A stretch of DNA of 64,000 bases, taken from assembly GCA_020632555.1 (NCBI GenBank), contig JACKFI010000001.1:133152-197151 (forward strand), in the 5' to 3' direction. Below, in pieces: positions 7,636 to 57,503 of this stretch. The position numbers and the translations under genes are program-made. Each line of letters starts with the position of its first letter. Position 1 is the first letter of the stretch. Source of the stretch: Candidatus Omnitrophota bacterium. GTDB lineage: Bacteria; Omnitrophota; Gorgyraeia; Zapsychrales; JANLHA01. The notes beneath the pieces were generated by a model, which did no database searches, was not told where the DNA came from, and saw nothing but the letters and a program-made list of their open reading frames with translations.

Positions 7636-7671
7636 CTACTTTCTCTAAAGTTAAAACATCGGTGCATTATA

Positions 7672-8268: not shown

Positions 8269-8343
8269 GTTAGTTAATGATAACTAACATAATGTAACAG
8301 AGTCTGATTCATCTGTCAACCACAACCTTAAAAAAGTCTTGCT

Positions 8344-23823: not shown

Positions 23824-24313
23824 TTGACCTCCCCTGACTATTGGCACTGTTTAAGATGGATGAAGTCGTATAATTAAAAGCAACTCCTAAATAACCCATG
23901 CTCTTGGACTGCATAGAACCTTTGAAATAATTTTGGCTTTGTTGATACTCTAGCTGGTCGGGGAAAAACATAGCCGCGATATATTGACAGCTTATGGTAA
24001 ATTTTCTTTTTGGAGAGACCAGAACACTAAAATATCTATCCGTCAAATCCGGCACTATCCGACTTTCCTCAATATCCCAAAAAAGGAAATTATTAACCAT
24101 CACGGGAAAGTCATTGGGATTAAATATCGTTATTAATATGTCGTGGCGTGTTCTCAGTTCACCATGCTGATCTGTAGTTCCACAAATAAAATCAGCCCGA
24201 TTCTCATACTCAATAGGATCTTGAATATATGCTTGGACGCTGACAACAGTGCTGGCCGCAATGATTGCAGCAAAAAGTAGAATTTTGATAAGTTGATTGA
24301 TTTTGACTGTCAT
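23810..24313 (-). CDS. Hypothetical secreted protein
   Basis: Start moved to MTVKINQL (ATG 24313), preceded by AAGGAG. N-terminal signal/TM helix. No recognisable domain. Confidence 0.5.
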   Translation of the reverse strand: MTVKINQLIKILLFAAIIAASTVVSVQAYIQDPIEYENRADFICGTTDQHGELRTRHDILITIFNPNDFPVMVNNFLFWDIEESRIVPDLTDRYFSVLVSPKRKFTISCQYIAAMFFPDQLEYQQSQNYFKGSMQSKSMGYLGVAFNYTTSSILNSANSQGRSNEEN

Positions 24314-24431
24314 TGCTCTGCTCTCCTTTATGTTGCTAGAATAGCAGGCTCCAAAAAACAATCAACGCCGCATGATACACTACATAACATGTATATAAAA
24401 GTAAGTGTTTAGTATATTTCTTGAAATCTTC

Positions 24432-25256
24432 TTAAAGCGTTTGAAGATAAGTGGTTAGGTTAACATCCTTGTTTGTTATACCTAATTTATTGCGGATTCT
24501 GTTCCGATGAGTCTCTACAGTCTTGGAAGAAATGTTTAACATTTCTACAATTTCTTTGCTGCTAACTCCGTTTTTAATGAGATTGGCGATCTCGACTTCA
24601 CGTGGGGATAATTTCAACTGCTGCTCAGAAACCTTAATGCCAAAAGTTGAAGTTAAGTCTTTCAAGTTCTTCTCTAAAATGTCAATATACTTTTTGTCTA
24701 AGCGGGTTCCTTTTCGCTTGATTTTCTTTAAAGCGGGAATCAAAACTTCCTCGACATTCATCACAACCCCTTCTTTGATTCTTTTTTTCTCTAATTCTAT
24801 TTGCTCCAAAATCTCCTTCAATGCCCCATTTTTTTGCTCGATAGCTTGCTCTGATTTCTTGCGATCGGTTATGTCATGCTGAATAGCGATATAATGAGTC
24901 AAATTCCCCGATTCATCCTTGATGGGCTCAATATGCCACTCATTCCAAAACTCGGAACCATCTTTGCGATAGTTAATGGCTTGCCCATAAAACACTTCTC
25001 CGGCTTCTAATGCTGCTCTAAGCCTGCGGGTAACAGATTGATCTGTCTTTGGCCCTTGTAGGATGCGAGGCGTCTTTCCCAGCACGTCCTCGGGCAAATA
25101 GCCGGTCATCCTTGTAAAACCCGGATTCACATAAAGAATTTTAGGGCCGGGCGGATCCAAATCTTTTGTTGTGACAATAATCGAATCTTGAGTAAAGTGA
25201 ACCACAGAGGCCAGAAGCTTTTCATCTGCTTGATATTTTGAATTGTATTGACTCAT
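24432..25256 (-). CDS. LOV-like PAS domain + LuxR-type HTH transcriptional regulator
   Basis: PAS core PKILYVNPGFTRMTGYLPEDVLGKTPRILQGPKTDQ ... INYRKDGSEFWNEWHIEPI ... HYIAIQHDITDRK. Coiled linker. C-terminal LSPREVEIANLIKNGVSSKEIVEMLNISSKTVETHRNRIRNKLG. Start taken at MSQYNSKY (25256, AGGAAA upstream); the track ORF extends to 25325. Confidence 0.85.
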   Translation of the reverse strand: MSQYNSKYQADEKLLASVVHFTQDSIIVTTKDLDPPGPKILYVNPGFTRMTGYLPEDVLGKTPRILQGPKTDQSVTRRLRAALEAGEVFYGQAINYRKDGSEFWNEWHIEPIKDESGNLTHYIAIQHDITDRKKSEQAIEQKNGALKEILEQIELEKKRIKEGVVMNVEEVLIPALKKIKRKGTRLDKKYIDILEKNLKDLTSTFGIKVSEQQLKLSPREVEIANLIKNGVSSKEIVEMLNISSKTVETHRNRIRNKLGITNKDVNLTTYLQTL

Positions 25257-25497
25257 GCTTGTGAAATTTCCTAAAGTTTTAATCACTTTTCCCCTAATTC
25301 TACGTTGACTTGTGCAACATGACAAGTGAATTTACGAGCCTGAAAACATCCCTTGATCATTCTTTTCTCATGACTATTAATAGTGGTTTTATTGTCAAAA
25401 GGCGGGATAGAACTATCTTCGATAGGTTCAGGTTATGAAAGGTCTAGCCTGATTCCCAACCTGTTTAATAACAATATGTTGCGTGATGGTCAAAAAA

Positions 25498-25515
25498 ATG
25501 TGCCAGATTTGTGCC
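25498..25515 (-). promoter_or_regulatory. sigma54-promoter-like motif, copy 1
   Basis: Minus strand reads ATAGGCACAAATCTGGCACATTT (GGCAC-N5-TGGCA, compared with consensus TGGCAC-N5-TTGCA). About 240 nt upstream of the PAS-LuxR start and 40 nt downstream of the fic stop. Confidence 0.4.
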
Positions 25516-25556
25516 TATCCTAAAGAGCTACTTTTTTTGATGATAAGCCGACCTGA

Positions 25557-26690
25557 TTAAGTGTCCTTCAATGCGTAACTTGTGCTGCGCCCACCCGCGG
25601 TTTCTTTTACTAAAATACCCTTTTCAACAAGATCGAGAATATCGCGCAACGCCGTGTCCTGTGAACACTGGGTGATCTTCGCCCATTTAGAAGAAGTGAG
25701 CTTGCCTTCAAAACCATCAAACAACTTATTGATGATCATCTTCTGCCTCTCGTTAAGGGATTGGGCAGGATGAGATTCCCAAAAACGCGCTTTCTTAAAT
25801 ACACCCGACAAAGTATTTTCAGTTGCATCCAACGCCCGACCCAAACAGCTCAGGAACCACACAAGCCATGGCGTAATATCAATGCCGTCTTTTGTGGCAC
25901 GGTTACTTTTCTGTGTTTTTTCAAGAATATCATAATAGGCATTCCGTTCCTGCCGGATCTGATTCGACATGCTGTAAAAACGCTCCCGGCTGCCGTCGGC
26001 ACGTGCCAGTTGCATATCGGCAATAGCCCGGGCAATTCTTCCGTTACCATCATCAAAAGGATGAAGTGTCACAAACCACAAATGCCCAATACCAGCTTTG
26101 AGCACAGGATCTAAATCCTTTGTGAGCGAAATCGAAGTGTTAAACCATTTCAGAAATTCCTTCATTTCACTTTTAAGACGGTTGGCCTGCGGTGCTTTAT
26201 AATGAACCTTCTCCCGGCCGATAGGACCAGACACAACTCTCATGGGACCATGCTTATCGTCGCGCCAATCAGCCACTGTAATTTTATGCATTCCGCTTCT
26301 ACCGGTTGGGAATAAACTGGCATGCCAGCCAAACATTCGATCCTGCGTAAGGGGCTTGTCAAATTTCTGTGTGGCATCGAGCATCATTTCCACCACTCCA
26401 TCCACATGACGATCAGAAGGCACAAGTCCACCGATGTCCATGCCCAGCCTGCGTGCAATGGATGACCGCACTTTGGCAGGGTCAAGAATCTCACCTTCAA
26501 TTTCACTACTTTTTAAAACATCAAGGGTGAGAGTCTGCAGGATTGCCTCGGAACGCAAAGAAAAACCCAATGCTTCCATTCTTCCAATCAGTCGCCCTTG
26601 GCGATTGCGGACAGTCCCCAAGATAGACGCGACCTTTTCGTGATCCCATGTCAATTTAGGCCAAATGGTTAATTCATGAATGTATTTCAT
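25557..26690 (-). CDS. Fic/DOC family protein (AMPylase-type) with N-terminal DUF4172-like region and C-terminal winged helix
   Basis: 377 aa. Fido motif HPFDDGNGRIARA. N-terminal WPKLTWDHEKV. C-terminal ..ALRDILDLVEKGILVK. Confidence 0.9.
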   Translation of the reverse strand: MKYIHELTIWPKLTWDHEKVASILGTVRNRQGRLIGRMEALGFSLRSEAILQTLTLDVLKSSEIEGEILDPAKVRSSIARRLGMDIGGLVPSDRHVDGVVEMMLDATQKFDKPLTQDRMFGWHASLFPTGRSGMHKITVADWRDDKHGPMRVVSGPIGREKVHYKAPQANRLKSEMKEFLKWFNTSISLTKDLDPVLKAGIGHLWFVTLHPFDDGNGRIARAIADMQLARADGSRERFYSMSNQIRQERNAYYDILEKTQKSNRATKDGIDITPWLVWFLSCLGRALDATENTLSGVFKKARFWESHPAQSLNERQKMIINKLFDGFEGKLTSSKWAKITQCSQDTALRDILDLVEKGILVKETAGGRSTSYALKDT

Positions 26691-26721
26691 GGCAAATTCC
26701 TGCGGTGAATAGTCTCATTAT

Positions 26722-26765
26722 TCTACGCATACTATGCGGAGAATATACCATGTTTTCTCCGCATA
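26722..26765. promoter_or_regulatory. Candidate operator upstream of fic
   Basis: Palindrome TCTACGCATA-c-TATGCGGAGA (26722-26742) plus a third half-site TCTCCGCATA (26756-26765), 30-75 nt upstream of the fic ATG. Confidence 0.35.
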
Positions 26766-26877
26766 CACAAGAGAGATTTAAATCTATATTGCTCCCTACT
26801 AAAAGAAAGCGTCATTGGATATAACGGCTATGTCCAATCATATCCAATTATTGAATCTTTCCATGAGATTTGAAACG

Positions 26878-26895
26878 ATGTGCCGGATTCCTGCC
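26878..26895 (-). promoter_or_regulatory. sigma54-promoter-like motif, degenerate copy 4, fused to an 18-nt palindrome
   Basis: Minus strand reads GTAGGCAGGAATCCGGCACATCG (3 differences from the 18-nt core). About 190 nt upstream of fic. Overlaps CCTGCCTACCGGCAGGCA (26890-26907). Confidence 0.25.
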
Positions 26896-26918
26896 TACCG
26901 GCAGGCAGGTGTGCCAAG

Positions 26919-27866
26919 TTATAATCGATCTGAATATTGTGAGATTGTACTTAAAATTTCATCAAACGATATTTGCCCCTGATAATACAATGTTGCAGTT
27001 TTTAGGCACTCCTTCTTAAATTGATCTCTTATCTTCGTATCTTTCAGCAAAAAAGCCTCCTGCTTTGCAATAGGAAACTTTTGATCTGCGACGGGAAATC
27101 TCTTCTTCTTATGCTCGTTGTATTCTGAAGTCCCGATAAACTTCTGAACCGTATCGTTTTGCAAAAGGCAAGCAACATCGTAATAATGCCGGATAAAATT
27201 AGCAGGCATCTTTCCGGACTCTTGCAGTTTCCGAAACTTTGTTGCGATTGTTTGCAATTTCTCAACAAACGTATAACCCAGATGATAGCACAAAACACCA
27301 CCAGCTCTATTATCCTTAACCTTGAGTCCATTCTGCAATGCAAAATCAAGCGCCCAAGAGCTAATATCCATCGGGCTGTTGGGCGTCACCTCATCAAACC
27401 CAACTTCGAGCAATACACCCTCTTTTATGCCGCCGGCAACAGAGAAAGCACTTTTGTAAAAAAGCCGTATTCCACCGCTAAAGAATTTTTCATTATCAAA
27501 TTCCGTGTCACGAATAATTCTTTGTATCCCATCAATATTAATTTTCTTCGCCAACCAGTCATAGTATTTCTTACGGCTTGCACAATGATCTGGTTTTATA
27601 TGGTTTGGACCTGTCTTGACTTCCATGCCGGCAGGCGGTTCGATACGAATATCAATGTCCTCAGAAAATCGATGAATAATGCCATACCCTTTTGAGAGCG
27701 ACGTACCTCCTTTGAGCTCGAAGGTAAATCCCCCTTGTTGCAAACCATATAAAACATGCATGATCCAATAATCTTTTTCAACCAGACTACGCTCTATCTT
27801 TTTTTCATGCTCTACAGCTCGCAAGAGTTCTTTAAATTCAGCGTGGTTATGTAAATAATCAGACAT
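26919..27866 (-). CDS. AbiEii/AbiGii nucleotidyltransferase toxin (type IV TA, DUF1814)
   Basis: 315 aa. LKGGTSLSKGYGIIHRFSEDIDI nucleotidyltransferase motif. 8-nt overlap with the upstream antitoxin-like gene. Confidence 0.85.
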   Translation of the reverse strand: MSDYLHNHAEFKELLRAVEHEKKIERSLVEKDYWIMHVLYGLQQGGFTFELKGGTSLSKGYGIIHRFSEDIDIRIEPPAGMEVKTGPNHIKPDHCASRKKYYDWLAKKINIDGIQRIIRDTEFDNEKFFSGGIRLFYKSAFSVAGGIKEGVLLEVGFDEVTPNSPMDISSWALDFALQNGLKVKDNRAGGVLCYHLGYTFVEKLQTIATKFRKLQESGKMPANFIRHYYDVACLLQNDTVQKFIGTSEYNEHKKKRFPVADQKFPIAKQEAFLLKDTKIRDQFKKECLKTATLYYQGQISFDEILSTISQYSDRL

Positions 27867-28452
27867 GTGCTAAGTTTCCCTCTAACATCCATTGATTAAA
27901 TAAAGTTTTTGTTCTTTCTCCTGCATAAACATTGACCGCGCGCTTCATCTGAGATTCTGGTTCTTTCAGCACTTTTTCCTTAACACTTCGCAAAACACTT
28001 TCCCGATCTTCCGCTAACTCATTTAAATTGTTCAGTAAATCAACCAGTAGAAATTCTTCGGACAATTCTCTGGGGAATTTATGCTTTAATCGAAAATCAA
28101 ACTCCTTTCCACCAAGAACGAATTGACCATGCCGTTTATGATTATAAACAAAGCGCGTATTGTACAACTGCGTAGTTCCCACTCCTAAAGAATTGTAAAG
28201 GTTAGGCGAGGTTAAAAGAAAATCATCGCTTTTTAAGAAGGCCCGTACCAATTTTTCGTCTTCCGGTGGCACAGAGCCAAACGAGGCTTTTGCAGGATAA
28301 TAGTACAATCCCTGTGACATTTTTTGCAAGGTCCCCTCATCAACCAGTTGCTTTAAATGCCGATCAACCGCGGTTGACCATTGCTCCAGATCAACCCTGC
28401 GATAAACCTGTCCCGGTTTTAAATGCCTTTTAAGTTCGCTAAGCGCGTCCAC
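27859..28452 (-). CDS. AbiEi-family antitoxin-like protein (wHTH)
   Basis: 197 aa. N-terminal wHTH-like HLKQLVDEGTLQKMSQGLYYYP. Positioned directly upstream of AbiEii and overlapping it. Confidence 0.65.
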   Translation of the reverse strand: MDALSELKRHLKPGQVYRRVDLEQWSTAVDRHLKQLVDEGTLQKMSQGLYYYPAKASFGSVPPEDEKLVRAFLKSDDFLLTSPNLYNSLGVGTTQLYNTRFVYNHKRHGQFVLGGKEFDFRLKHKFPRELSEEFLLVDLLNNLNELAEDRESVLRSVKEKVLKEPESQMKRAVNVYAGERTKTLFNQWMLEGNLAHV

Positions 28453-28568
28453 GTCTTCTGCCTCCTACTTACCTCAAGTATAAAGAGTTTTCTCTAAGAA
28501 TGCAACAATATTAATTTAAAATTCATGCAAATAAAGTGGAAGGACGCACCCAAGATGCTGATATAAAT

Positions 28569-29918
28569 CTAATTGTGATGATTAGCCATCATCCAATCAA
28601 GCACCCCTTTAACACGACGCCAGACAGTAGCCATCTCATGGGCATAATACCGAGCCTCATCCTCTCCGCCCATAGATAAATAATCAGGAATCGCCTTCAA
28701 ACGGAAACCTTTGACAAGATAATTAGGAATAAATTTATTTGTTTTAAAAGCGCGCGCCATCATTTCCCTTGATTGCAACGAATCACCTTCTTTAATAAAC
28801 CACACCAACGCCCTCGTGTAGCACCATGGCGCGGAGCAATCATTCGCATACGGCCCATCCTCCATGAATTGTTCAAGTTCCGCAAATTTCGATCTCTTTG
28901 CCAGATAGCCTGCAAGAACATAGCGCATTCCCTGATTGTCATTCTCATTCAAACACAGCATATCGCGACACACCTCAATCGCTTCGGCATGCTTACCAAG
29001 CTCCCATAAAATTTCCTGAAGTCCAGCCAAAGCGCGCATATACGGCCTTGATTCCAGCAAAGCCCAAAATTGTCCGGCATTCTCTATAAAAAATTTTTGC
29101 CCTAATGCTTCTTTGCCAACCCTAACCCCTTGTAAAAAGTAGGTTGCGGCTTCGTCAAGATACTCTGCTGAATCACCTAAAACAACGTAGGCATCCGTGC
29201 AATTCGGATCAAGATTTAAAGCTTTTTGAGCCAAACCAACACGCTCATCAGAATCAGCCCGCTCCCATGCTTCATAAATCAACTCTTGAGCGATACGTGC
29301 AGGCGACGCATCTGCGAGCTCAGAGGCGGCTTCACCCAATTCTCTTCTTAAGTAAGTCTTCAAATCTTCCTCTTTTGGAATACCCCAAAGAATATTTCTA
29401 AGATCTGGTGGGACCTTGTAACCGTAAAGTGCCGAAAACGTCTCGATCGGAAACCCGTATTTCAGCGCTCCCATGGGCATGCCATTCAATTGAGCGGCTA
29501 CGACGGCCGCAGGATCCTCGTCCTTCTTAGCTTTACTCAGCCACCAGCGGGAATTTAAGACCATCTGGTTCATGGAGGCAAGCACACTGCGATCATTGGC
29601 TTTATCGACGACAATCTCGTCACAGCCTTGCAAAACTTTCTGCATCATTTCACTTGGACAATGCGTATGAAACATAGCACGCGAAAGCCCTTTGTAAAAA
29701 AGTTCACGAAGGTTTTTGAGATCCTTTTTCTTCACTCCCGCGACAAGGAAAGAAAACAGCGTCGATCGATGAGTAAAAAGCAGCTGCTTCTTGTGCTCAT
29801 GATAAAATAAATTCACGAACCATTCTGAAACAGATGGACTATCAGTGTTCAAAGATAAAGACTGAGGCTTGATACCGCTAAACAATAAAAACTTTTGTGT
29901 CCCACGTAAAAGAATCAT
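28569..29918 (-). CDS. Hypothetical protein with C-terminal TPR-like helical repeats
   Basis: 449-aa ORF, coherent with no internal stops. C-terminal half is helical-repeat-like (AQELIYEAWERADSDERVGLAQKALNLDPNCTDAYVVLG). No function assignable. Confidence 0.55.
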   Translation of the reverse strand: MILLRGTQKFLLFSGIKPQSLSLNTDSPSVSEWFVNLFYHEHKKQLLFTHRSTLFSFLVAGVKKKDLKNLRELFYKGLSRAMFHTHCPSEMMQKVLQGCDEIVVDKANDRSVLASMNQMVLNSRWWLSKAKKDEDPAAVVAAQLNGMPMGALKYGFPIETFSALYGYKVPPDLRNILWGIPKEEDLKTYLRRELGEAASELADASPARIAQELIYEAWERADSDERVGLAQKALNLDPNCTDAYVVLGDSAEYLDEAATYFLQGVRVGKEALGQKFFIENAGQFWALLESRPYMRALAGLQEILWELGKHAEAIEVCRDMLCLNENDNQGMRYVLAGYLAKRSKFAELEQFMEDGPYANDCSAPWCYTRALVWFIKEGDSLQSREMMARAFKTNKFIPNYLVKGFRLKAIPDYLSMGGEDEARYYAHEMATVWRRVKGVLDWMMANHHN

Positions 29919-29994
29919 TTTTTAATAACCTAACGTTGTTAAATCACCTACAAGCGCCCTCGTTTTGTCATACACTGCGTAATGGTCAATAAAA

Positions 29995-30012
29995 ATGTGC
30001 CAGATTTGTGCC
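29995..30012 (-). promoter_or_regulatory. sigma54-promoter-like motif, copy 2
   Basis: Minus strand reads TGTGGCACAAATCTGGCACATTT (TGGCAC-N5-TGGCA). 77 nt upstream of the 449-aa ORF start. It shares a further ~17 nt (TTGACCATYACGCA) with copy 1. Confidence 0.45.
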
Positions 30013-30017
30013 ACATG

Positions 30018-30443
30018 CTATATGAGTTTTTCCATTTTTTCTATAGCAGCATAGTAAATACTCAAAAACTTATCTTTTATTGTAAAAAGCTCGTCCATCA
30101 TTTTTTCAGAATGGGACTTATTCTCATATTCAAAAGGATAAAACCGAATACCCTTTTTATAAAATCCGCCTTCATAATTAATTTGAAAAAAATAATCTCG
30201 GTCAACAAGAGATCGATGCTTACTCAAGTTACAAAAACTCCTCACGTAGCCAAACTCATCTGAGTCAATCCATTCTCCTATAGCATTCTCTAAATCCGGA
30301 GCGATACCTTTCAATTGTTTACTCACTTTATAAATTGTAACTTTGCTTCGGGGCAGCGTAGAAGATAGGATTACCATATTGATTACCTGTGCGCAAATAT
30401 CAGGAGCCAAAGAGAATATTTCCAAACGTGCCATATTCAGCAC
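30018..30443 (-). CDS. Hypothetical protein
   Basis: 141-aa ORF beginning 103 nt downstream of rtcA on the same strand. No recognisable motif. Confidence 0.4.
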   Translation of the reverse strand: MLNMARLEIFSLAPDICAQVINMVILSSTLPRSKVTIYKVSKQLKGIAPDLENAIGEWIDSDEFGYVRSFCNLSKHRSLVDRDYFFQINYEGGFYKKGIRFYPFEYENKSHSEKMMDELFTIKDKFLSIYYAAIEKMEKLI

Positions 30444-30546
30444 AAACCTGCCGAAGGACGAGCAAGTCCGCCAGAAGCAAATGAACCCGACACTCCTGGA
30501 AATGTTCTCTTTTACTCTCTTTTGAGTTTCTTTAGAATTTTATTTT

Positions 30547-31560
30547 TCATATTGAAACGTGGCATTGCCCATTGCCAAGATCAACAAAATTAATTTTAAC
30601 ATCCATGAACTTCTCAATAATCTCGGCATTGGTAAGGCTGTGCAGCGTCAGGGCCGTAGTTTTAAATTCTCCACCTTTGGCCAAAGCAAACGGGATCAAA
30701 AGCTGATCAGCCAAATACGTCCCCACCGGAGCATCGATTTGTAAATATTTCTTTACTTGTTCAATGGCTTCATGCGCTACTGCTTCCGCGCTTTTACGCA
30801 ATTCTCCGAAACCCACAAACATTTCCCTGATATTTTCACTATCAACCTCAACCGTAAAAATATTTCCCGGACCTTGAGAATCCATGGCTTGAAAAATCTC
30901 ACTTTGATCATCTTCCAGAGAAAAATGTTTTTTAGCGACCGCGATTTCTCTGACAGCAACATTGCCAGGGATTTGGGCAAAGAGTGATCTTGCCTTTATG
31001 CCTTTAAGTTTGCCGCGCTCTAACAAAAATATGGGTTTTAATTTCTTTATAGGCACAATTTTAGCTTCGATCTTTCCGCCGCCGGCCGGGTAAAAACCGT
31101 GGCGATGCAAAGTCACTTCTAAATCCACACCCATTTGTTTGAGAATCGGCGCAAAAACTATTTTTAAAAAATCCACCGGGGGTGCGAAAGGATTATGCGT
31201 TCCTCCTTCGATCACAATTATGGATGGTGAGTCCGCGATCATCAAAGCCGGTAAAATGGTTTGCAAAACAAGAGTCGCGCTACCCGCCGTCCCAACTGAA
31301 AAATGGTATTCCCCTGCGGTGACTTCTCCCGGATAGAAAGTCAGCTTTTGCGAGCCGATAACATTCCCATCGACCTTTGCATCTCCAATCTTCGTAGCTG
31401 CTTCGACAGCCGTTAAATGCTGGCGTAAAAGCCCCGGCTTACTACGCTTAGCGCGGATATTCTCAATCGTAAACGGCTCGCCCGTTACTAAGGACAACCC
31501 GAGAGCTGTCCTTAGTATTTGGCCCCCGCCTTCACCGATTGAACCGTCGATTTTAATCAT
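30547..31560 (-). CDS. rtcA: RNA 3'-terminal phosphate cyclase RtcA
   Basis: 337 aa. MIKIDGSIGEGGGQILRTALGLSLVTGEPFTIENIRAKRSKPGLLRQHL, HRHGFYPAGGG, YLADQLLIPFALA. ATGA overlap with the upstream SPFH gene. Confidence 0.92.
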   Translation of the reverse strand: MIKIDGSIGEGGGQILRTALGLSLVTGEPFTIENIRAKRSKPGLLRQHLTAVEAATKIGDAKVDGNVIGSQKLTFYPGEVTAGEYHFSVGTAGSATLVLQTILPALMIADSPSIIVIEGGTHNPFAPPVDFLKIVFAPILKQMGVDLEVTLHRHGFYPAGGGKIEAKIVPIKKLKPIFLLERGKLKGIKARSLFAQIPGNVAVREIAVAKKHFSLEDDQSEIFQAMDSQGPGNIFTVEVDSENIREMFVGFGELRKSAEAVAHEAIEQVKKYLQIDAPVGTYLADQLLIPFALAKGGEFKTTALTLHSLTNAEIIEKFMDVKINFVDLGNGQCHVSI

Positions 31561-32306
31561 TTGACCTCTTTGGTTCTCACCGGAACGACTTGACCCGATA
31601 CTCCTAAGACAATCGTACTTCCCGGTGATTGTAAAGCTCGCAATTGCAATAACGCAGGATTGTCTTCCAACACTTTAGAAACATTGGCCAAATTGCGCAA
31701 AGACGCGGTTTCTCCGCGGGCACGTTCCAATGCCGCCAACCCTTCTTTTTGCGCCTCAACAACCTTAGCAAAGATTTTCTTTAATTCACCCGGAAACATA
31801 ACGTCCTTAACGCCGATGAGCGTAATTTTTAAACCGATTTCCTTCGCTTTGGCAACCGTCGCTTCCATCAACTTTTGATTAATCGTTGCTCGCTGTGCCA
31901 AAACCTCATCGATCGCTAAAGAGCCAATGATGTCACGAACTGCCAATTGTACCACCGCGTATAAAGCCTCGGTGTAACTAGCGATCTTATTAACGGCGAT
32001 GTTGGCATCTTCGATCTCATATTGCGCCGTAATGCTGACCTTTAAGGACACATTGTCCGAACTTAAGACTTCCTGCCCCGGGATCGTGATGACTCGAGGA
32101 CGAACATCGATCTTAACGATGATCGTATTCTGAGAAAACTTAAAATAACGACCCGGTTCCAAAATTCCGACAAATTTTCCCTTGCGATATTTTAAACCCT
32201 TCTCATATTCAAGAATAGTGACAAAATATTTTGCACTAAAAACCGCAATGACGACCCAACCGATAAAGCCGAGCACCGCCATGCTTACTAATGTTGATAA
32301 TGTCAT
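31557..32306 (-). CDS. SPFH/band-7 (stomatin/slipin-like) membrane protein
   Basis: 249 aa. N-terminal TM helix. SPFH core VDVRPRVITIPGQEVLSSDNVSLKVSITAQYEI, then a coiled AKVVEAQKEGLAALERARGETA segment. Confidence 0.85.
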   Translation of the reverse strand: MTLSTLVSMAVLGFIGWVVIAVFSAKYFVTILEYEKGLKYRKGKFVGILEPGRYFKFSQNTIIVKIDVRPRVITIPGQEVLSSDNVSLKVSITAQYEIEDANIAVNKIASYTEALYAVVQLAVRDIIGSLAIDEVLAQRATINQKLMEATVAKAKEIGLKITLIGVKDVMFPGELKKIFAKVVEAQKEGLAALERARGETASLRNLANVSKVLEDNPALLQLRALQSPGSTIVLGVSGQVVPVRTKEVK

Positions 32307-32602
32307 TTCTTTCTCCTTTTGTTTTTAAAAGTTCTGTCTTAAAAAAATTGTAGAATCGCAGTGGAGGTTGTTGACCTGCAAGACGGCTTTTCTACGAGCA
32401 ACTTTCTTAAGACAGAACGTGGGGATTTGAACCCCTCGGATTACTCCTTGACCAGGGCGAGCGTTTATCTGCAAAATGATATGGCCGATGCCATGTCATC
32501 GCACTGGATTCGCTCGCATATTTTTTTATCCCAATTTTTGCTAAAGGATTTTGCTTTTGGTAAATTGGGATTACGCAAATTTTTTCTATCGAAAATCTGC
32601 CT
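32307..32602 (-). ncRNA. Structured non-coding spacer between rtcB and the SPFH gene, with a tRNA T-arm-like motif (candidate ncRNA or tRNA remnant)
   Basis: No ORF. On the minus strand: 10-bp hairpin ATCCCAATTT/AAATTGGGAT (32528-32571); 7-bp stem GCGAGCG/CGCTCGC (32457-32517); exact T-arm GGGGTTCAAATCCCC (rc of 32421-32435); 12-bp stem GTTCTGTCTTAA/TTAAGACAGAAC (32331-32342 with 32407-32418) followed by TTTT. Confidence 0.35.
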
Positions 32603-34120
32603 TTAAGCTGCTCCTTTTAAACTTTTATCTTCATCTTTAATAACAAACCGCGCTTTTAACTTTGCCACAGGACTCGCCAGCCCGGCGCTCTCGATTGATC
32701 TCAAAACTTCTTTGAAATCTTTATAAGCCGCAGGGGCTTCATCCAAAGGATATTGCCGGCAATTAGACAGAATGTCATTGTCTTTGAAACTCTGGTCGAC
32801 TTCCTGTTGGACCAAAGTTCTCATCGCCGCCTTCCGTCCCAACGCACGACCAGCGCCGTGATTAACGCTGTAACAACTTTTTTCTGCGCCCGGATCAGCA
32901 ACCATAACAACCGAGCCATCTTTAGGATTACCCGGAAGCAAAATCGGATGTCCGGTATCAGCAAACAAAGTGTCCTTTAATGCAAAGTGTCCCGCCGGGA
33001 AAGCCCGCGTCGCCCCTTTGCGGTGGACCCAGACTTTTTGATTGTCCACCACTTCCTGCCGGGCAATGTTATGGCTGATAAAATAAACCAACTGCCCTTT
33101 TGTTCCAGGAACCACCTCTTGAAACGCTTCTAAAACCAAAGCATTGATTAACAGATGATTGATCGTCGCAAAATTAGCGCCCAAGGCCATGTCATTCAAG
33201 TAGGCATCTGCTTCGGGCGTTCCCAAGGGCGCATACACCAACTCCTTATCCTCGCCCGGCAATGGAATATCCCAAACCGAGAATTTATTTTGCAAGGTCT
33301 TGAATTGATGCTGCGCTAAATGATAACCAAAACCGCGCGAACCGCAATGCGAGAGAAAGGCTACCTTGTTATCTTGAAGCCCAAAGACTTCGGCCACCTT
33401 CTTGGCGCGCTCATCATTCTCGATTTCAACAACTTCGCATTCTCCAAAGTGATTTCCACCACCATAAGAACCCAATTGCGAAATCTTTTTCTCAAAATTA
33501 TCGAACAATCCCGTATCGATCAAAAATTGCAATCTTTGACCTAAGGCATCGGCTGTTCCATCATGCCCGACGTGAAAAGCATCTTCGCAACGCAAAGCCC
33601 AATCCACAGGAATGCCTAATTGCTCGCAGACCGAAGCCGAAGCACCCTGGATAGCGACTTGTTTACCCAGGATTTCATTGACCCGTCTCGCCTTCTTAAC
33701 TGAACGCTGCCCCTGCCCCGCACCCGTCGGGGTTCTTTCAAGGATCGCGTTAATTAAAGCCCGACGGGTGCTTTGATCAATGACGGCATTTGCCGGCAAA
33801 TCCATTTGCAATAAACTCATCGAACACTTAATGTCCACACCAACCGGACCAGGATATATATGAGTAGGTGACACCAGAACACAACCAACCGGTGCGCCGT
33901 ACCCGCAGTGAGCATCTGGGTTCAATACTAAATCGGTAACCCCGGGAGCGCCGCGAGAATTTAAAGCTTGTTGAATACAAAGGTCATCAAAAGTTTTTCT
34001 GATCGCCTCGGTTCCAATCACCGTGATTGGTTTTCCTTCACTATTATGCATAGGAAGAAAACCCGTTGCTTCCCCGGTGGCATGAATTCTTGAAGTTGAT
34101 TCGTTCGTTTGTTCTGACAT
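32603..34120 (-). CDS. rtcB: RNA 3'-phosphate ligase RtcB
   Basis: 505 aa. DAHCGYG, HCGSRGFGYHLAQH, ISHNIARQE, VHRKGATRAFP, NHGAGR. Confidence 0.95.
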   Translation of the reverse strand: MSEQTNESTSRIHATGEATGFLPMHNSEGKPITVIGTEAIRKTFDDLCIQQALNSRGAPGVTDLVLNPDAHCGYGAPVGCVLVSPTHIYPGPVGVDIKCSMSLLQMDLPANAVIDQSTRRALINAILERTPTGAGQGQRSVKKARRVNEILGKQVAIQGASASVCEQLGIPVDWALRCEDAFHVGHDGTADALGQRLQFLIDTGLFDNFEKKISQLGSYGGGNHFGECEVVEIENDERAKKVAEVFGLQDNKVAFLSHCGSRGFGYHLAQHQFKTLQNKFSVWDIPLPGEDKELVYAPLGTPEADAYLNDMALGANFATINHLLINALVLEAFQEVVPGTKGQLVYFISHNIARQEVVDNQKVWVHRKGATRAFPAGHFALKDTLFADTGHPILLPGNPKDGSVVMVADPGAEKSCYSVNHGAGRALGRKAAMRTLVQQEVDQSFKDNDILSNCRQYPLDEAPAAYKDFKEVLRSIESAGLASPVAKLKARFVIKDEDKSLKGAA

Positions 34121-34163
34121 TTGTTTTTCCCTTATATTGCCCCTTTCCTTTATCGTTGCTTAA

Positions 34164-34192
34164 AGCATACCCTATCCAAAGCCAAATGTCAA
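34164..34192 (-). promoter_or_regulatory. sigma70-type promoter candidate for rtcB
   Basis: Minus strand reads TTGACA (rc of 34187-34192), a 17-nt spacer, then TATGCT (rc of 34164-34169), about 45 nt upstream of the rtcB ATG. Confidence 0.4.
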
Positions 34193-34243
34193 ATTTATTT
34201 TTATTTTCTTGTATAAATGTTTATCCTGTGATATATTTATACC

Positions 34244-35842
34244 ATGAATACAAAAATTGCTATTGGGCTACTTGGGACAACCCTCGATCAAGGGAAAGAT
34301 GAAAATCGCTGGAACAAGTGGCGTCCGACCATCTCCCTTTTTCAGCACGAAGACCTCTTGATCCATCGTTTTGACTTGCTATACGAAAAAAAATTTCAAG
34401 ATCTTGCCGAGCAAGTTATTTCTGACATCAAATCCATCTCCCCTGAAACCAGAGTTGTGCCCCACATTATTGAAGTGAAAGACGCGTGGGATTTTGAGAA
34501 TATGTACAGCGTCCTTTTTGACTTTGCCCGCAATTATCCTTTTAATATAGAGAAAGAAGAATATCTCATCCACATCACCACCGGATCGCACGTAGCGCAA
34601 ATTTGTGAATTTCTTTTAACTGAAAGCCGATACTTCCCAGCTAAACTCATCCAGACCTCCCCTTCCAAAACCGAAGGCTTTAAAGGCGAATACCGCATCA
34701 TTGATCTTGACCTTTCTAAGTACGACAACATCGTCAAGCGATTCCGTAAAGAACAAAGAGAAAATTTATCATTTCTTAAATCCGGGATAGCGACTCGCAA
34801 TAGTAAATATAATCGGCTCATTGAACAAATCGAACGCGCGACGATCAACTCTAATGCCCCGCTTCTTCTCACCGGCCCGACCGGTGCCGGAAAATCACAT
34901 CTTGCCCGACAAATTTTTGAACTCAAAAAGATTCACAACCAAATCAAAGGCCAATTTATCGAAGTCAACTGCGCGACTCTGCGCGGAGAAATGTCGGCCT
35001 CCACCCTTTTTGGGCATGTCAAAGGAGCATTTAACTGCGCCATCAAAGACCGAATGGGATTATTACGCGAAGCCAATGAAGGGGTTTTATTTCTCGACGA
35101 GATTGGAGAATTAGGGATCGATGAGCAAGCCATGCTTCTTAAAGCATTGGAAGAACAAAAATTCTTGCCCATCGGCAGCGACGAGGAAGTTGAAAGTAAA
35201 TTTCAGTTAATTGCCGGGACGAATTTAGACCTTGGCATTGAAGTTGATAAAGGCAATTTTCGCACCGACCTCTACTCCCGAATCAATCTTTGGACATTCT
35301 CATTGCCTTCTCTTAAGGACCGTCCTGAAGATATCGATGCCAACATTGAATTTGAATTAGAAAAGTTTTCACAAACACACAATATCAACGCCACCATCAA
35401 TAAAGAAGCCAAAGATGCCTATTTGAAATTTGCGACATCAGAGAAAGCATTATGGAAAGCGAACTTCCGTGACTTGAATGCCTCCATCATTCGCATGACC
35501 ACATTAGCCGACGGCGGGAGAATCAATATTGAACTTGTGCAGGAAGAAATTGACCGGTTAAATAAACTTTGGAAGAGAAGCGAAGATACTCAAGAAGCGG
35601 AGATACTCGAACGTTTACTAACTCAAGAACAACTGCAAAAGCTAGACCGGATTGAAAAAATCCAATTGATTGAAGTTATAAAGATTTGCCGCGAATCACG
35701 CAACCTGTCTGAAGCCGGCCGCATTTTATACAATGCTTCCCGCACACTCAAATCAAGCACCAATGACGCCGATCGACTTAAAAAACTTCTCGCCCGCCAC
35801 GATCTATCCTGGGACCAAATTAAAAACGCTTCCGTACTATGA
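34244..35842 (+). CDS. rtcR: RtcR: CARF-domain / AAA+ bacterial-enhancer-binding-type regulator of the rtc operon
   Basis: 532 aa, divergent from rtcB. N-terminal ~185 aa RtcR-type CARF region. Walker A LLTGPTGAGKSHLA. LFLDEIGELGIDEQAMLLKALEE. C-terminal HTH. The L1 loop reads GAFNCA (35024-35041) instead of GAFTGA. Confidence 0.9.
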   Translation: MNTKIAIGLLGTTLDQGKDENRWNKWRPTISLFQHEDLLIHRFDLLYEKKFQDLAEQVISDIKSISPETRVVPHIIEVKDAWDFENMYSVLFDFARNYPFNIEKEEYLIHITTGSHVAQICEFLLTESRYFPAKLIQTSPSKTEGFKGEYRIIDLDLSKYDNIVKRFRKEQRENLSFLKSGIATRNSKYNRLIEQIERATINSNAPLLLTGPTGAGKSHLARQIFELKKIHNQIKGQFIEVNCATLRGEMSASTLFGHVKGAFNCAIKDRMGLLREANEGVLFLDEIGELGIDEQAMLLKALEEQKFLPIGSDEEVESKFQLIAGTNLDLGIEVDKGNFRTDLYSRINLWTFSLPSLKDRPEDIDANIEFELEKFSQTHNINATINKEAKDAYLKFATSEKALWKANFRDLNASIIRMTTLADGGRINIELVQEEIDRLNKLWKRSEDTQEAEILERLLTQEQLQKLDRIEKIQLIEVIKICRESRNLSEAGRILYNASRTLKSSTNDADRLKKLLARHDLSWDQIKNASVL

Positions 35843-35934
35843 TCAATCCCTAATTTAATCATCCGTGATAGTTTATTTGAGAATTTATTGTAACCCCAAG
35901 AAGTGGCGTCAGGGGGGATTTTTGGTGCCAAAAC

Positions 35935-35952
35935 ATGTGCCAGATTTGTGCC
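35935..35952 (-). promoter_or_regulatory. sigma54-promoter-like motif, copy 3
   Basis: Minus strand reads TATGGCACAAATCTGGCACATGTT. Lies 25 nt downstream of the HEPN gene and points antisense into the 3' end of rtcR. No downstream minus-strand gene. Confidence 0.35.
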
Positions 35953-35976
35953 ATAGCAAAATGCCATCTTTTTGTA

Positions 35977-36384
35977 TCACTTTCCCATCATCTCTCTGAC
36001 CCATTGATAAACCCGGGTAGTCACCTTGACCATTTCATCAGCATCGGCTCGATTAACACTACGGCATTCATACTGGATCACATTCTTTCGGGCAATGATT
36101 TTGCGTAATTGCTTGGCTTTTTCAGCAGCGCCATCAATCGGCAATTTTGAAACCAGCTCACAGACATCCAAGTGATCTTGGGAAATTGACCGAACACCTT
36201 TTTCATTCACACAAATCGCATCCGCCGAAGAAATCGCACATTGCAATGCCAACGTTGCCGCGGCGTTCCAATTCTCAGCATGAAAAGCAATGAGCATTTG
36301 ATCGTAATTGTCCGATGCCTTTTTCAGATATTCACTAGCGGCAGATTTGCTCTCTTCTCTCACCTTCATTTCACGCGCTGTCAC
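35977..36384 (-). CDS. HEPN-domain protein (HepT-like toxin of a HEPN/MNT module)
   Basis: 135 aa, all-helical. Rx4-6H-type motif RSISQDH. Lies immediately downstream (1-nt gap) of the MNT gene. Confidence 0.7.
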   Translation of the reverse strand: MTAREMKVREESKSAASEYLKKASDNYDQMLIAFHAENWNAAATLALQCAISSADAICVNEKGVRSISQDHLDVCELVSKLPIDGAAEKAKQLRKIIARKNVIQYECRSVNRADADEMVKVTTRVYQWVREMMGK

Positions 36385-36385
36385 A

Positions 36386-37015
36386 TCACACCTCCAAAGG
36401 TTCTTTTCCGTATAAAACTGAATAGGATTTCATTAATGTTGATATCGGCGGAAGATTCTTTTTAAGACGTTCACGAAATTCAGCCGCTGACTTTACATAA
36501 AAATCCAAATGAATACCAAAATATGACTTAAACCGATCCGCAATGCTTGAATTAAAAACCTCCGCAACCTGCTTCGTATGGCTTGCCTTATCGACAACAA
36601 CGGCCACATCAACATCGCTTTTTTTATTTGCTGTACCTTGCTGAACACTTCCATAAAGGATCAAAGAAACAATATCCGTCTTGATCCCGCCTTTCTTTAT
36701 CTCCTCCAAGAGCAGATCGCGGATCTCTCCCTTATAATTACTCTCCGCCTCGAACATCGGGCGAATAATTTTTTGAACGATGCGGTCCTCTTCATTCAAA
36801 GAATAGATATGCTGTTTTCCGATGACTTCGACATTAAGAATATTGTGTGCCTGAAGATTCTTTAATGATTCGTGGGTAGCAGGCACAGAAAAACCAGACA
36901 ATTTAGCAATCTCGCGGCCCGTGGCTCTTAATCCTTTACGGATAGTCAGAACACGCAGGATGGCCACCGCTGACTGCGTCCCAACAATTTCACTGATTTG
37001 GAAAGGAGAATCCAT
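36386..37015 (-). CDS. Minimal nucleotidyltransferase (MntA-like antitoxin) with N-terminal winged-helix domain
   Basis: 209 aa. N-terminal wHTH (GREIAKLSGFSVPATHESLKNLQAHNIL). NTase motif LILYGSVQQGTANKKSDVDVAVVV. Confidence 0.8.
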   Translation of the reverse strand: MDSPFQISEIVGTQSAVAILRVLTIRKGLRATGREIAKLSGFSVPATHESLKNLQAHNILNVEVIGKQHIYSLNEEDRIVQKIIRPMFEAESNYKGEIRDLLLEEIKKGGIKTDIVSLILYGSVQQGTANKKSDVDVAVVVDKASHTKQVAEVFNSSIADRFKSYFGIHLDFYVKSAAEFRERLKKNLPPISTLMKSYSVLYGKEPLEV

Positions 37016-37020
37016 AAACT

Positions 37021-37058
37021 TTACCTAACATATGTAAGGTTAACCTAACACGTAAAGT
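37021..37058. promoter_or_regulatory. Candidate operator upstream of the MNT/HEPN pair
   Basis: TTACCTAACATATGTAAGGTTAACCTAACACGTAAAGT: imperfect palindrome CCTAACAT/ATGTAAGG plus a repeated ACCTAACA, starting 6 nt upstream of the MNT start codon. Confidence 0.3.
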
Positions 37059-37346
37059 ATAACATTGTTTCCAGAACTGTCAAATTTATACTGCTCCACG
37101 GTGATATACCGTATTGTGTGTAAATTAACTGTCATCCCCGAAATTTTTTATCGGGGAACCATTTAAAAGTAGTAAAAAAAGGCGTATCTTTCTGTTTGGA
37201 AATGTTTAACCGGGTTGACCCATGTCAGCCCAGAACAGAAAGGATACGCCCATGTACCAAACATTTGATACTTTAAAACATCGCGGAGCCGGGTCAAGGA
37301 TTTCATTAATTATACCCAACCGAAAGATTTTTGGATCGATATTAAT

Positions 37347-38471
37347 ATGCATCTTAGAAAACTAACCAAAAGTTTTATTGAAGAAACTCTCGACGAAGAA
37401 ATGACCCAATATCAACAACGAGAAAAACATCAGCGGTTAAAGAAAATGATCGATTACCGAAACGGACATTATCAACGCAACCTCGATACGACCATCGGCC
37501 CTCTTGATAATATTGCCGTTCCGCGTTCACGAAGCGGACTATTTAAACCTACGGTTTTTAAGCGTTACCAAAGACGCCAAGAAGCTGTTAACACCGTCAT
37601 CTGCAATGCCTTCCTGCGCGGCATATCCACCCGTGAAGTCGCTGGCGCTTTAAAACCAATCCTTGACACCAACATCTCCGCTTCCGCCGTCTCACGAATA
37701 ACAAAATCTTTAAATGCCCAAGTTAAAGCATTCCATCAACGTCAACTGCTCGACGAATATCAGTTTTTATTCCTAGACGGTATTGCTATCTCAGTCAAAG
37801 GAGCGCTTAAAGCCAAGAAAATTCTTGTCCTAACTGCTTATGGCATTACGATCTTCGGTAAAAAAGAGCTCATCGCCTTTAGAATCTCTAACAGCGAGTC
37901 AAATCAAGCCTGCGAAGGATTTTTAAATGATCTATTTAAACGCGGCCTGCAAGGCAAAAACCTTAAATTGATTATCACCGACGGGTCCAAAGGCTTTATT
38001 AACGCCGTCGACCTCGTTTACCCTCACGTCAAACATCAGCGCTGCTGGGTTCATAAACTTCGTAATTGCACTAAACATCTTAAGAAATGCGATATTGATG
38101 CATTTAAAAATGATGCCCGCAAGATTTACAATGCCTCGACTCATCGAGATGCTGTCGCGGCTTTTAAGAGTTTACGCCAACATTGGGTCAAAGATTATCC
38201 GCAAGTTGTCAAACTCATCGAACAGGATTTAGATAGTCTTTTGGCTTTTTTAGAAATTCCAATCAAGGAACAATACCGCGAATTTATCCGTCGTCGAATT
38301 CGTACAACCAACATCATCGAGCGTTCATTCCGGGAAATCAGACGCCGCACCAGACCCATGGGATGTTTTGCAAATATTGATAGCGTCAGCAGGATTATTT
38401 ATGCGATATTTAATCGCTTAAACACCAAATGGCAGGAGAAACCTTTAACCCAATTTACACAATTTATTTGA
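37347..38471 (+). mobile_element. IS256-family (mutator-type) transposase gene; IS ends not delimited
   Basis: 374 aa. FLFLDGIAISVK, IITDGSKGFINAVDLVYPHVKHQRCWVHKLRN, TTNIIERSFREIRRR (DDE region). N-terminus somewhat short for the family. I could not identify convincing terminal inverted repeats. Confidence 0.8.
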
Positions 38472-38549
38472 CATTACCGCAAATTGAAAGGTGCGGTTAA
38501 AACAAGAAAACCCCGTCTCTCCTCGACGGAAAACAGGGTTTTATATTGG

Positions 38550-38563
38550 TTGCGGGGACAGGA
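38550..38563 (-). repeat. 14-nt duplicate of the tRNA-fMet 3' end
   Basis: TTGCGGGGACAGGA is identical to 38731-38744 (discriminator, 3' acceptor strand and start of the T stem), 181 bp from the intact gene. It runs directly into the palindrome CCTGCCTACCGGCAGGCA (38564-38581). Confidence 0.6.
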
Positions 38564-38695
38564 CCTGCCTACCGGCAGGCAAGTTTGAATGGTTTCGCGG
38601 CTTCGCTTACGCTCAACCATTTCCTCGCCTAACGGCTCGGTCACCTGCGCTCGCTTTCGCTCGCTGCACGTCCATTCACCCATCCCACTAATAAA

Positions 38696-38725
38696 TTAAG
38701 AAGGCCCCAATTGGGGCCTTCTTAA
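38696..38725 (-). terminator. Rho-independent terminator downstream of tRNA-fMet
   Basis: Perfect 30-nt palindrome TTAAGAAGGCCCCAATTGGGGCCTTCTTAA, 6 nt after the tRNA 3' end, followed on the minus strand by TTTATT. Confidence 0.7.
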
Positions 38726-38730
38726 TTTAA

Positions 38731-38804
<74 letters not shown>

Positions 38805-38827
38805 GCTATTCTTAGTAATAATATCTT

Positions 38828-39040
38828 GAGGTAGCCGCGGCACTTCCTCGGGTATTAAGCGTCTGTCGGCCTCGCCACGGTGGGCTCGGCACTCCTTCGC
38901 ACTTTACGTGCTCAGTCGCCCGCTTTGGTACTAAATACATCTTAATATAACGGCGGCACTTCCTCGGGCATTAAGCGTCTGTCGGCCTCGCCACGGTGGG
39001 CTCGGCACTCCTTCGCACTTTACGTGCTCAGTCGCCCGCT
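38828..39040. repeat. GC-rich tandem repeat, two ~96-bp copies with 116-bp period, immediately 5' of tRNA-fMet
   Basis: CGGCACTTCCTCGGGYATTAAGCGTCTGTCGGCCTCGCCACGGTGGGCTCGGCACTCCTTCGCACTTTACGTGCTCAGTCGCCCGCTTTGGTACTA occurs at 38828 and 38944, nearly identical. A degenerate related stretch lies at ~38585-38690. Confidence 0.85.
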
Positions 39041-39084
39041 TTGGTACTAATGCTATCTTTTGATACTATAAATATCTTTAAATC

Positions 39085-44961: not shown

Positions 44962-45034
44962 AAGCCCAAACCCTTTCTTCAAAAGTCACGGCTTGGATTA
45001 TAGCATTGAAACGAATATGAGAAAATTATTTGAT

Positions 45035-57483: not shown

Positions 57484-57503
57484 ATTTACATCAAATTTTT
57501 CGC

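Follow-up and report, generated by a model that had tools for sequence, protein, structure and literature searches.

We describe a short DNA motif that recurs within a gene island next to a methionine transfer RNA (tRNA-Met) gene, in a 64,000-nucleotide (nt) stretch of a Candidatus Omnitrophota contig (hereafter the window, by which we mean this whole stretch). The motif copies are most probably arm-type integrase-binding repeats, predicted as such by analogy with phage attachment (att) sites and situated at the module ends of a decayed composite island at tRNA-Met. A preliminary description of this DNA had proposed in the first place that they form the promoter of a shared sigma54 regulon, a proposal left unsupported by the contexts of the motif family, the covariation of the half-sites, the splitting of one copy by an insertion, the orientation of another and the presence of a third repeat unit. 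The alternative offered there (cassette-boundary repeats or recombination sites) was essentially right, in that the copies lie at module joints and appear to belong to the att machinery of tyrosine integrases. Three kinds of observation carry this reading: the geometry of the repeats, their associations in other genomes, and the module boundaries at which they stand.

A pattern search of the 64-kb window finds ATGTGCCAGATTTGTGCC exactly at 25498-25515, 29995-30012 and 35935-35952 on the plus strand (copies c1, c3 and c4) and with 3 mismatches at 26878-26895 (copy c2). None of 100 dinucleotide-preserving shuffles reached four matches (mean 0.06), the four copies are confined to 10.5 kb, and the remaining 53 kb of the window contains no further copy at ≤3 mismatches; search and shuffles together bear out the three identical 18-nt copies and one 3-mismatch copy first reported. 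On the minus strand the motif reads (T)GGCACAAATCTGGCACAT, which is a direct repeat, GGCACA-N5-GGCACA, with a period of 11 nt in all four copies, c2 having an insertion. That copy runs GGCACA, CCTGCCTGCCGGTAGGCAGG, AATCCGGCACAT, and is an intact GGCACA-AATCC-GGCACA split by a 20-nt palindrome (26890-26909); the three mismatches originally counted in it are real, but the copy is not degenerate. A third repeat unit is found in c1, c3 and c4. The downstream stretch common to the copies at 25498 and 29995 (TTTTTTTGACCATCACGCA / TTTTTATTGACCATTACGCA) had been taken to be the first transcribed bases, and while the sharing holds, what is shared is this third, degenerate unit: the right flank of c1 contains TGACCA, 12 nt past the second GGCACA, and the flank of c3 (29973-29994) is homologous to that of c1. 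In c4 the motif takes an extended form, GGCACAAATCTGGCACAT(G)TTTTGGCAC..CAAAATCCCCCC.

The gene context given earlier is likewise confirmed. Every copy lies 3-41 nt past the stop codon of a co-oriented gene (Fic, AbiEii, an open reading frame (ORF) of 141 amino acids (aa), and HEPN), and c1, c2 and c3 stand 76-187 nt ahead of the next gene, whereas c4, 24 nt past the HEPN stop codon, points antisense at rtcR, facing the 3' end of this convergent gene. Terminator-like sites in the window do not coincide with the motif copies, and an Rfam search of 24000-39200 (gathering threshold and E <= 1) returned tRNAs only.

The same motif occurs widely in other genomes, in contexts that recur. We searched 596 Gb of genome sequence for the exact 17-mer GGCACAAATCTGGCACA and obtained at least 119 genome loci (comparison loci are labeled L below); about 70 matches are expected by chance in 596 Gb according to our own estimate, and some of the matches are therefore noise. 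Among the matches listed, to which the counts that follow refer, the 17-mer recurs across many phyla in non-random contexts. A tyrosine integrase (custom hidden Markov model; Pfam Phage_integrase) lies within 3 kb of 34 of the 127, and in 30 loci it is co-oriented with the motif, which then sits at or after the 3' end of the gene, either within the final 6-19 codons or, in other loci, 36-360 nt beyond the stop. In 10 loci and in L201 the integrase is immediately preceded by an HTH_17 excisionase-like gene, and in L026 and L091 the motif is found 6 nt ahead of the integrase start codon. Homologous integrases translate the same DNA in three frames, as GTNLAH (L003, L016, L028), WHKSGT (L013, L018) and MAQIWH (L023), and some copies are non-coding, so that what is conserved is the DNA and not a peptide; a conserved integrase peptide as the cause of the motif was rejected on these grounds. 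The motif-bearing integrases also share an N-terminal K-R-G-K-x-W-W...G-x-R-x-R-x-S pattern, which would be expected of an arm-binding domain and to that extent is supportive.

Linkage to tRNA genes is equally apparent among the listed matches. A convergent tRNA gene (in one case a transfer-messenger RNA (tmRNA) gene) lies 27-303 nt downstream in 28 matches, most often at 46-52 nt, and a co-oriented tRNA gene is found 72-225 nt upstream in six, with four of these at about 117-121 nt; the tRNA genes concerned are of many identities. Many motif loci hold further near-copies in the same orientation (≤3 mismatches; at least 16 seen vs about two by chance), and pairs of motifs ~210-250 nt apart bracket a tRNA-derived fragment in L035, L036, L015, L020 and L098. 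Triplets of GGCACA occur in L057, L065, L097, L098 and phage, and several copies can share one locus (6 copies in 5.4 kb of L027; several in L116 and L099). The two half-sites vary together in variant copies (GACACAATTCTGACACA, GGTGCAAATCTGGTGCA, GGTACAAATTTGGTAC), giving the covarying forms GACACA/GACACA, GGTGCA/GGTGCA and GGTACA..GGTAC, and copies with one or two mismatches for the most part depart from the motif at just the two spacer positions that precede the second unit. Among the six copies of L027 (1384-4409), from a metagenome-assembled genome of the Gammaproteobacteria, a paralogous pair has conserved flanks and the same G-to-A change in both half-sites (GGCACAATTCTGGCACA vs GACACAATTCTGACACA), which illustrates the covariation cleanly. 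A metagenome scan for the junction CTGGCACA-N7-10-ACCATYACGCA yielded 62 matches, all 62 in unrelated coding sequences.

The clearest reference for the layout of the repeats comes from phages. Eighteen motif matches fall on viral contigs, mostly at prophage ends, and these are >99% identical to the Burkholderia P2-like phages phiX216, phiE52237, phiE202 and PhiBP82.3. The annotated attP core of PhiBP82.3 is the 45-bp 3' end of tRNA-Phe (L200 2738-2782). On one side of it, GGCACA units at 2662, 2672 and 2683 fall within the integrase gene's 3' end, 55-76 nt from the core; on the other side they are found at 2869, 2880 and 2901, 87-119 nt away. All six units are on the same strand, and they make up six of the eight GGCACA occurrences in the 4.3 kb of L200. 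The attP of phiX216 is known to lie in the 3' end of int, with integration at tRNA-Phe established from a sequenced lysogen junction (PMC3548686). P2-like integrases have arm sites of two direct repeats or more to each side of the core, their consensus being tgTGGaCa in the P2 type and tgccGCCActt in the 186 type (PMC3448106). By this comparison, the GGCACA repeats have exactly this architecture, and their unit is close to the P2 consensus.

Turning to the window itself, the minus strand carries, in order, tRNA-Met, a tRNA-Met 3' fragment, an IS256-family transposase, MNT-HEPN, c4, convergent rtcR, rtcB, an SPFH gene, rtcA, the 141-aa ORF, c3, DUF6933/ST7, AbiEi/AbiEii, c2, DUF4172-Fic, c1 and PAS-LuxR (Table 1). 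After c1 come 60 nt and then TCATAACCTGAA with a decayed T-arm, a degenerate tRNA-Met 3' half whose 12-nt match to tRNA-Met falls at 25427-25438, 60 nt from c1. Homology (90%) to the chromosome of L201, a close relative, starts at 25396 with the flank of PAS-LuxR, directly past this decayed half, from which we infer that 25396-38731 (13.3 kb) is a composite island at tRNA-Met and that c1 lies in its distal att junction.

Related loci show where the modules begin and end. The AbiEi/AbiEii region of the window (26878-28536) is 86.5% identical to L097 over 1660 nt, and the homology stops at the motif. L097 1865-1902 has the same palindrome-split motif as c2, after which L097 passes directly into the right flank of c1 and a PAS-LuxR-like gene; by this arrangement, the Fic module of the window is an indel bounded by two motif copies. 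The c4 form is homologous to L098 4750-4790 and L097 8-50, L097 carrying this extended form ahead of its AbiE module, and c1 with 130 nt downstream aligns with L098 4522-4655 and resembles L201 5723-5850. In L098, GGCACAAATCCGGCACA stands 1 nt past the stop of a cargo gene and 61 nt before an intact tRNA-Met 3' fragment, and a triple form of the motif follows 105 nt beyond that fragment. Homologues of PAS-LuxR are mostly from Omnitrophota, and the protein of L201/L202 is 95% identical to that of the window. The hot spot upstream of PAS-LuxR in L201/L202 is occupied by Xis-XRE-integrase, with GGCACAAATATGGCACA in the integrase tail (peptide GTNMAH), a second copy (GGCACAAATTTGGCACA) immediately past a 181-aa cargo gene's stop codon, and an intact 45-nt tRNA-Met 3' half 61 nt after the second copy.

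Taken against the architecture of arm-type sites, at least two tandem direct repeats phased at ~10-11 bp are present in all four window copies, and repeats on both sides of a tRNA-identical core, within about 50-150 bp, are found in the attP of L200 and in L035, L036, L015, L020, L098 and L201; in the window, only c1 adjoins a core. An integrase accompanies the 34 listed matches counted above, the prophages and L201, and none was found in the window itself. We propose that the 18-mer would be a pair of arm-type sites for a heterobivalent (lambda/P2-like) tyrosine integrase, which in two copies the degenerate third unit would extend to a triplet. GGCACA units recurring every 11 bp would lie on one face of the helix. 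A small N-terminal domain of the integrase would bind them at both flanks of the core, as such domains do in the analogous phage systems, while the catalytic domain would cut the core, namely the 3' part of the tRNA gene, and bridging between arms and core would build the recombination complex. The island at 25396-38731 would have arisen by successive integrations at tRNA-Met followed by deletion and shuffling, with MNT-HEPN, rtcR/rtcBA, DUF6933 with AbiEi/ii, and Fic as its modules, which may have been exchanged by use of the repeats, and with the four copies as arm sites left behind at module ends. On this model, c4 would be the tRNA-proximal (P'-type) form, and c3, c2 and c1 the distal (P-type) form placed directly after the last cargo gene; c3 would mark the distal end of the rtc module, and c1 would be the P-arm-type pair at the distal end of the island, where the decayed tRNA-Met core has been kept 60 nt away.

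Table 1. Motif copies, att-like remnants and associated features of the window (strand as annotated; roles in attachment are predicted).
Feature	Coordinates	Strand	Remarks
Motif copy c1	25498..25515	-	Exact match; GGCACA-AATCT-GGCACA(T); 41 nt past Fic stop codon
Right flank of c1, conserved (TTTTTTTGACCATCACGCAAC)	25476..25497	-	Common to c3 and L097 1902-1925
Motif copy c2, palindrome-split	26878..26915	-	Starts 3 nt past AbiEii stop codon
Motif copy c3	29995..30012	-	Exact match; 5 nt past stop of 141-aa ORF, 76 nt before DUF6933/ST7 gene
Motif copy c4 with third unit and conserved box (GGCACAAATCTGGCACATGTTTTGGCACCAAAAATCCCCCC)	35912..35952	-	Exact match
tRNA-Met (CAT) gene, predicted integration target anchoring the island	38731..38804	-	ARAGORN and Rfam
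Second tRNA-Met 3' fragment (TTCAAA...TCCTGTCCCCGCAACCA), putative att remnant	38547..38589	-	170 nt from full tRNA
IS256/Mutator-family transposase	37347..38471	+	Pfam PF00872, E = 1.2e-89
Decayed tRNA-Met 3' half, putative att core remnant, attR-like junction	25396..25438	-	12-nt exact match to tRNA-Met positions 34-45

Several observations weigh against the arm-site interpretation. The 64-kb window yielded no integrase in a tblastn search with 11 integrases (best E = 0.14), and a PHROGs search of the unannotated ORFs of the island was uninformative. At the joints of the window, tRNA-Met similarity appears only near c1 and at 38547-38563, leaving c2, c3 and c4 as orphan sites with no recognizable core; a model of tandem accretion with a tRNA fragment at every joint was rejected for this reason. 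Three copies are identical at 18 of 18 positions though the core beside c1 has decayed, which hints at continuing constraint, gene conversion or recent spread and is something that a pure-relic model fails to explain. Both the Fic indel and the points at which L099 and L090 diverge lie at the edge of the motif and not at a core, where simple integrase-mediated insertion would place them. Enrichment of the GGCACA hexamer within +/-400 nt of the genome matches (one mismatch allowed) is flat, enrichment near these matches being limited to near-copies of the whole motif. Finally, binding of the motif by an integrase N-domain is argued by analogy for every member of the family, and no publication linking GGCACA to arm-type sites was found in the literature searched.

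These observations make room for orphan repeats that are still functional and are kept identical for that reason, to which we give a slim chance. An integrase encoded elsewhere could dock on them in trans and swap integrase-less defence or toxin-antitoxin modules at arm sites, which would be a cassette system built on arm sites instead of attC hairpins. Alternatively, the sites might serve two uses: TGGCACA units with an 11-bp period imitate a -24/-12 promoter, and sigma54 holoenzyme and integrase might compete for the same DNA, coupling recombination of the island to sigma54 regulation. Short-repeat recombination between modules, or binding of another protein, could also provide a continuing function.

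A related possibility is an integron-like system with its crossover in the motif itself: a cassette would consist of a gene and its 3' motif, and site-specific recombination would take place within the motif. The position of every copy 3-41 nt past the stop of a co-oriented gene would suit such a system, as would the exact bounding of the Fic module by two copies relative to L097, the divergence of L099a, L099b and L090 directly past the motif, and the multi-copy loci L027, L116 and L099. The motif is, however, a direct repeat, whereas core sites of tyrosine recombinases need an inverted repeat around a spacer. Integron attC sites have imperfect inverted repeats (R''-L''/L'-R') that fold as a hairpin, and the motif copies show neither: their predicted RNA folds are no better than those of shuffled sequences (z-scores -0.9 to +1.6), and the window lacks an IntI-type integrase as well as attI and a Pc arrangement. 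Crossover in the phiX216 family takes place in the tRNA-identical core, 55-120 nt from the repeats, and the duplicated target in L201 and L098 is the intact tRNA half rather than the motif. We consider the integron-like explanation improbable.

We think it just as improbable that the repeats are bound by a different element-encoded protein, such as the HTH_17 excisionase (recombination directionality factor), in place of the integrase N-domain. Phased direct repeats are typical targets of directionality factors, and the HTH_17 gene directly upstream of the integrase in 10 loci and L201 would supply one. Excisionase sites in P2 and lambda are restricted to one arm, whereas the repeats here occupy both arms of the core in the phage attP, L035, L015 and L098; in addition, the P2-family arm consensus tgTGGaCa resembles TGGCACA, and the integrases share the conserved N-terminal motif, similar to that of an arm domain, noted above.

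Least probable among the explanations that we weighed is a shared regulon in which the copies would act as sigma54 (RpoN) promoters under an enhancer-binding protein, even though the resemblance that prompted it is genuine. The minus-strand reading does come near to TGGCAC-N5-TTGCA, as had been stated: measured against TGGCAC-N5-TTGCW with GG-N10-GC spacing, the copies at 29995 and 35935 have 1 mismatch and that at 25498 has 2, and the motif copies together with one site at 23386 are the best sigma54-type matches in the window. Spacing and consensus are those of such a promoter in c1, c3 and c4, while in c2 the 20-nt insertion falls between the boxes and breaks the -24/-12 spacing, yet the split copy is kept in L097. 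The direct repeat of GGCACA at 11 nt is by itself enough to produce the resemblance. It likewise explains the T that precedes the motif in 101 of the 124 listed genome matches, which would fit a -24 box but belongs to the repeat unit itself (TGGCACA). Among homologous sites the GG and GC are not conserved, and variants lose those of both boxes together; at position -14 the consensus T is replaced by G throughout, and position -15 is among the most variable.

The surroundings of the motif speak more against promoters than for them. Copies c1, c2 and c3 do have a co-oriented gene 76-187 nt downstream, but c4 is directed against convergent rtcR at its 3' end, a tRNA remnant intervenes between c1 and PAS-LuxR, and L201 has PAS-LuxR with a homologous upstream region but no motif there. 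Elsewhere the 17-mer is found within integrase 3' ends facing the 3' end of a convergent tRNA gene and on both arms of phage attP, and in L026/L091 it leaves no space for a transcribed leader before the integrase ATG; the extra bases shared by c1 and c3 are the degenerate third repeat unit and not such a leader. The island encodes the sigma54 activator RtcR, which favors the promoter view and implies that the genome has sigma54, but no RpoN box is encoded in the window. The rtcB upstream region proved unusable as a positive control, since the rtcR-rtcB intergenic region (34121-34243) contains no canonical sigma54 promoter: its best GG-N10-GC, GGGTATGCTTTAAGCA, agrees at 6 of 11 consensus positions, lies 36 nt before the rtcB ATG, and overlaps the -10 hexamer of a sigma70-like TTGACA-17-TATGCT (34192-34164). 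That the motif might be the end of a dispersed mobile repeat (a repetitive extragenic palindrome or a miniature inverted-repeat transposable element (MITE)), which the preliminary description had named as a ground for refutation, is not borne out within the window, where copies are present only in 10.5 kb of the island.

Several further features of the island and its surroundings deserve mention. The 20-nt palindrome of c2 (CCTGCCTGCCGGTAGGCAGG / CTTGCCTGCCGGTAGGCAGG) is present both at 26890-26909 and at 38564-38583, inside two unrelated att-type sequences; at the second position it splits the tRNA-Met 3' fragment (17-23 nt; 38547-38563/38589) between TTCAAA and TCCTGT. The insertion in c2 is also found in L097 (1871-1890), and the palindrome may represent a miniature insertion element, palindromic in form, that favors certain targets. 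At 26814-26848, between c2 and the start of Fic, there is an inverted repeat, ATTGGATAT...ATATCCAAT, whose homologue in L097 (150-180) is a palindrome situated upstream of AbiEi; this repeat may be an operator that travelled with the arm-site flank. The IS256/Mutator transposase, which separates the tRNA-Met fragment from the MNT-HEPN module, represents later decay of the island, outside the motif system. A whole Rtc RNA-repair unit (rtcR, rtcB, SPFH gene, rtcA, 141-aa ORF) is contained in the island, between copies of P'-type and P-type, and has the look of mobile cargo, not of core genome. Between rtcB and the SPFH gene, a gap of 300 nt (32306-32603, minus strand) contains a tRNA-like T-arm (GAGGGGTTCAAATCCCCAC) at about 32423-32440 with an 11-nt match to tRNA-Met positions 53-63 and no Rfam match; this could belong to a non-coding RNA of the Rtc operon, tRNA-like or Y-RNA-like, or could be a further att remnant.

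Near the tRNA-Met gene, two tandem 116-nt repeats (91% identity) are situated directly upstream of it (38813-39044), and terminator-like inverted repeats occur at 37123-37157 and 39095-39129. At the corresponding island junction in L201, a group II intron reverse transcriptase (RVT_1 + GIIM; 6316-7707) directly follows the tRNA-Met half, and the 111 nt after the reverse transcriptase region are 93% identical to window 38584-38694. A ~72-nt dispersed repeat (93-94% identity) is present at 45030-45103 of the window and, non-syntenically, at 8270-8340 and 10936-11007 of L201, one of the L201 copies directly following PAS-LuxR; the repeat is a candidate MITE-like element. Elsewhere in the window, tandem repeats of 183-184 nt (57016-57484) and a 58-nt pair (57497-57635) lie between tRNA-Thr (56952-57024) and tRNA-Phe (57639-57714), and an array of about 15 tandem repeats of 156-159 nt (52-53 codons; 60-100% identity) fills 60556-62919 and presumably represents a minus-strand gene for a highly repetitive protein.

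Most likely, then, the motif copies are left over from mobile DNA, a fairly ordinary feature whose resemblance to sigma54 promoters is accidental. The arm-site interpretation replaces a sigma54 regulon extending across defence genes with a structural account of the joints of a 13.3-kb island containing an Rtc operon and toxin-antitoxin/defence modules. It also has consequences for annotation: TGGCACA repeated directly at 11 bp scores as a near-consensus sigma54 promoter in any pattern scan, making this arm-site family a systematic source of false sigma54 predictions near tRNA genes and islands, and the recurrent peptides GTNLAH, WHKSGT and AQIWH at integrase C-termini are by-products of the DNA site rather than conserved protein features. 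In metagenome-assembled genomes from many phyla, the motif could in turn be of use in locating attP sites and the ends of islands.

Among known systems, sigma54 (-24/-12) promoters share with the motif the GG-N10-GC spacing and the TGGCAC at -24, but differ in context, in the covariation of its half-sites, and in the retention of a split copy. Integron attC sites likewise delimit cassettes and stand at the 3' end of co-oriented cargo genes that look promoterless; their repeats, however, are imperfect and inverted, and IntI recombines them in the form of folded single strands, whereas the site in the window is a direct repeat without a fold, linked to phage-type integrases that target tRNA genes. 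Composite tRNA-linked islands are known to form by tandem accretion, with integrase-less att-flanked derivatives (the cis-mobilizable element (CIME) type; ICESt1/ICESt3 family). The island in the window resembles these in having a full tRNA gene at one end with tRNA 3' fragments inside and at the far end, in its integrase-less modules with toxin-antitoxin and defence cargo, and in the different, integrase-bearing element that a close relative (L201) has at the same hot spot; it departs from them in that most of its internal joints keep the arm repeat only, with no core, and in that at least the Fic module is bounded by arm repeats and not by cores. The attP arm sites of P2-like, 186-like and lambda phages (lambda P'1-P'3) offer a further comparison. 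The motif differs from these in its unit, GGCACA, of which the literature searched gave no description, in the identical 17-mer pair common to many phyla, and in that the window copies are orphaned from an integrase and three of the four have no recognizable core. Like those sites, the motif family has short direct repeats at about one helical turn, at least two per arm and on both sides of the core, with a core identical to the bacterial target and repeats that either overlap the 3' end of int or adjoin it; this arm-site layout is shared by the Burkholderia P2-like phages in which the exact motif occurs.

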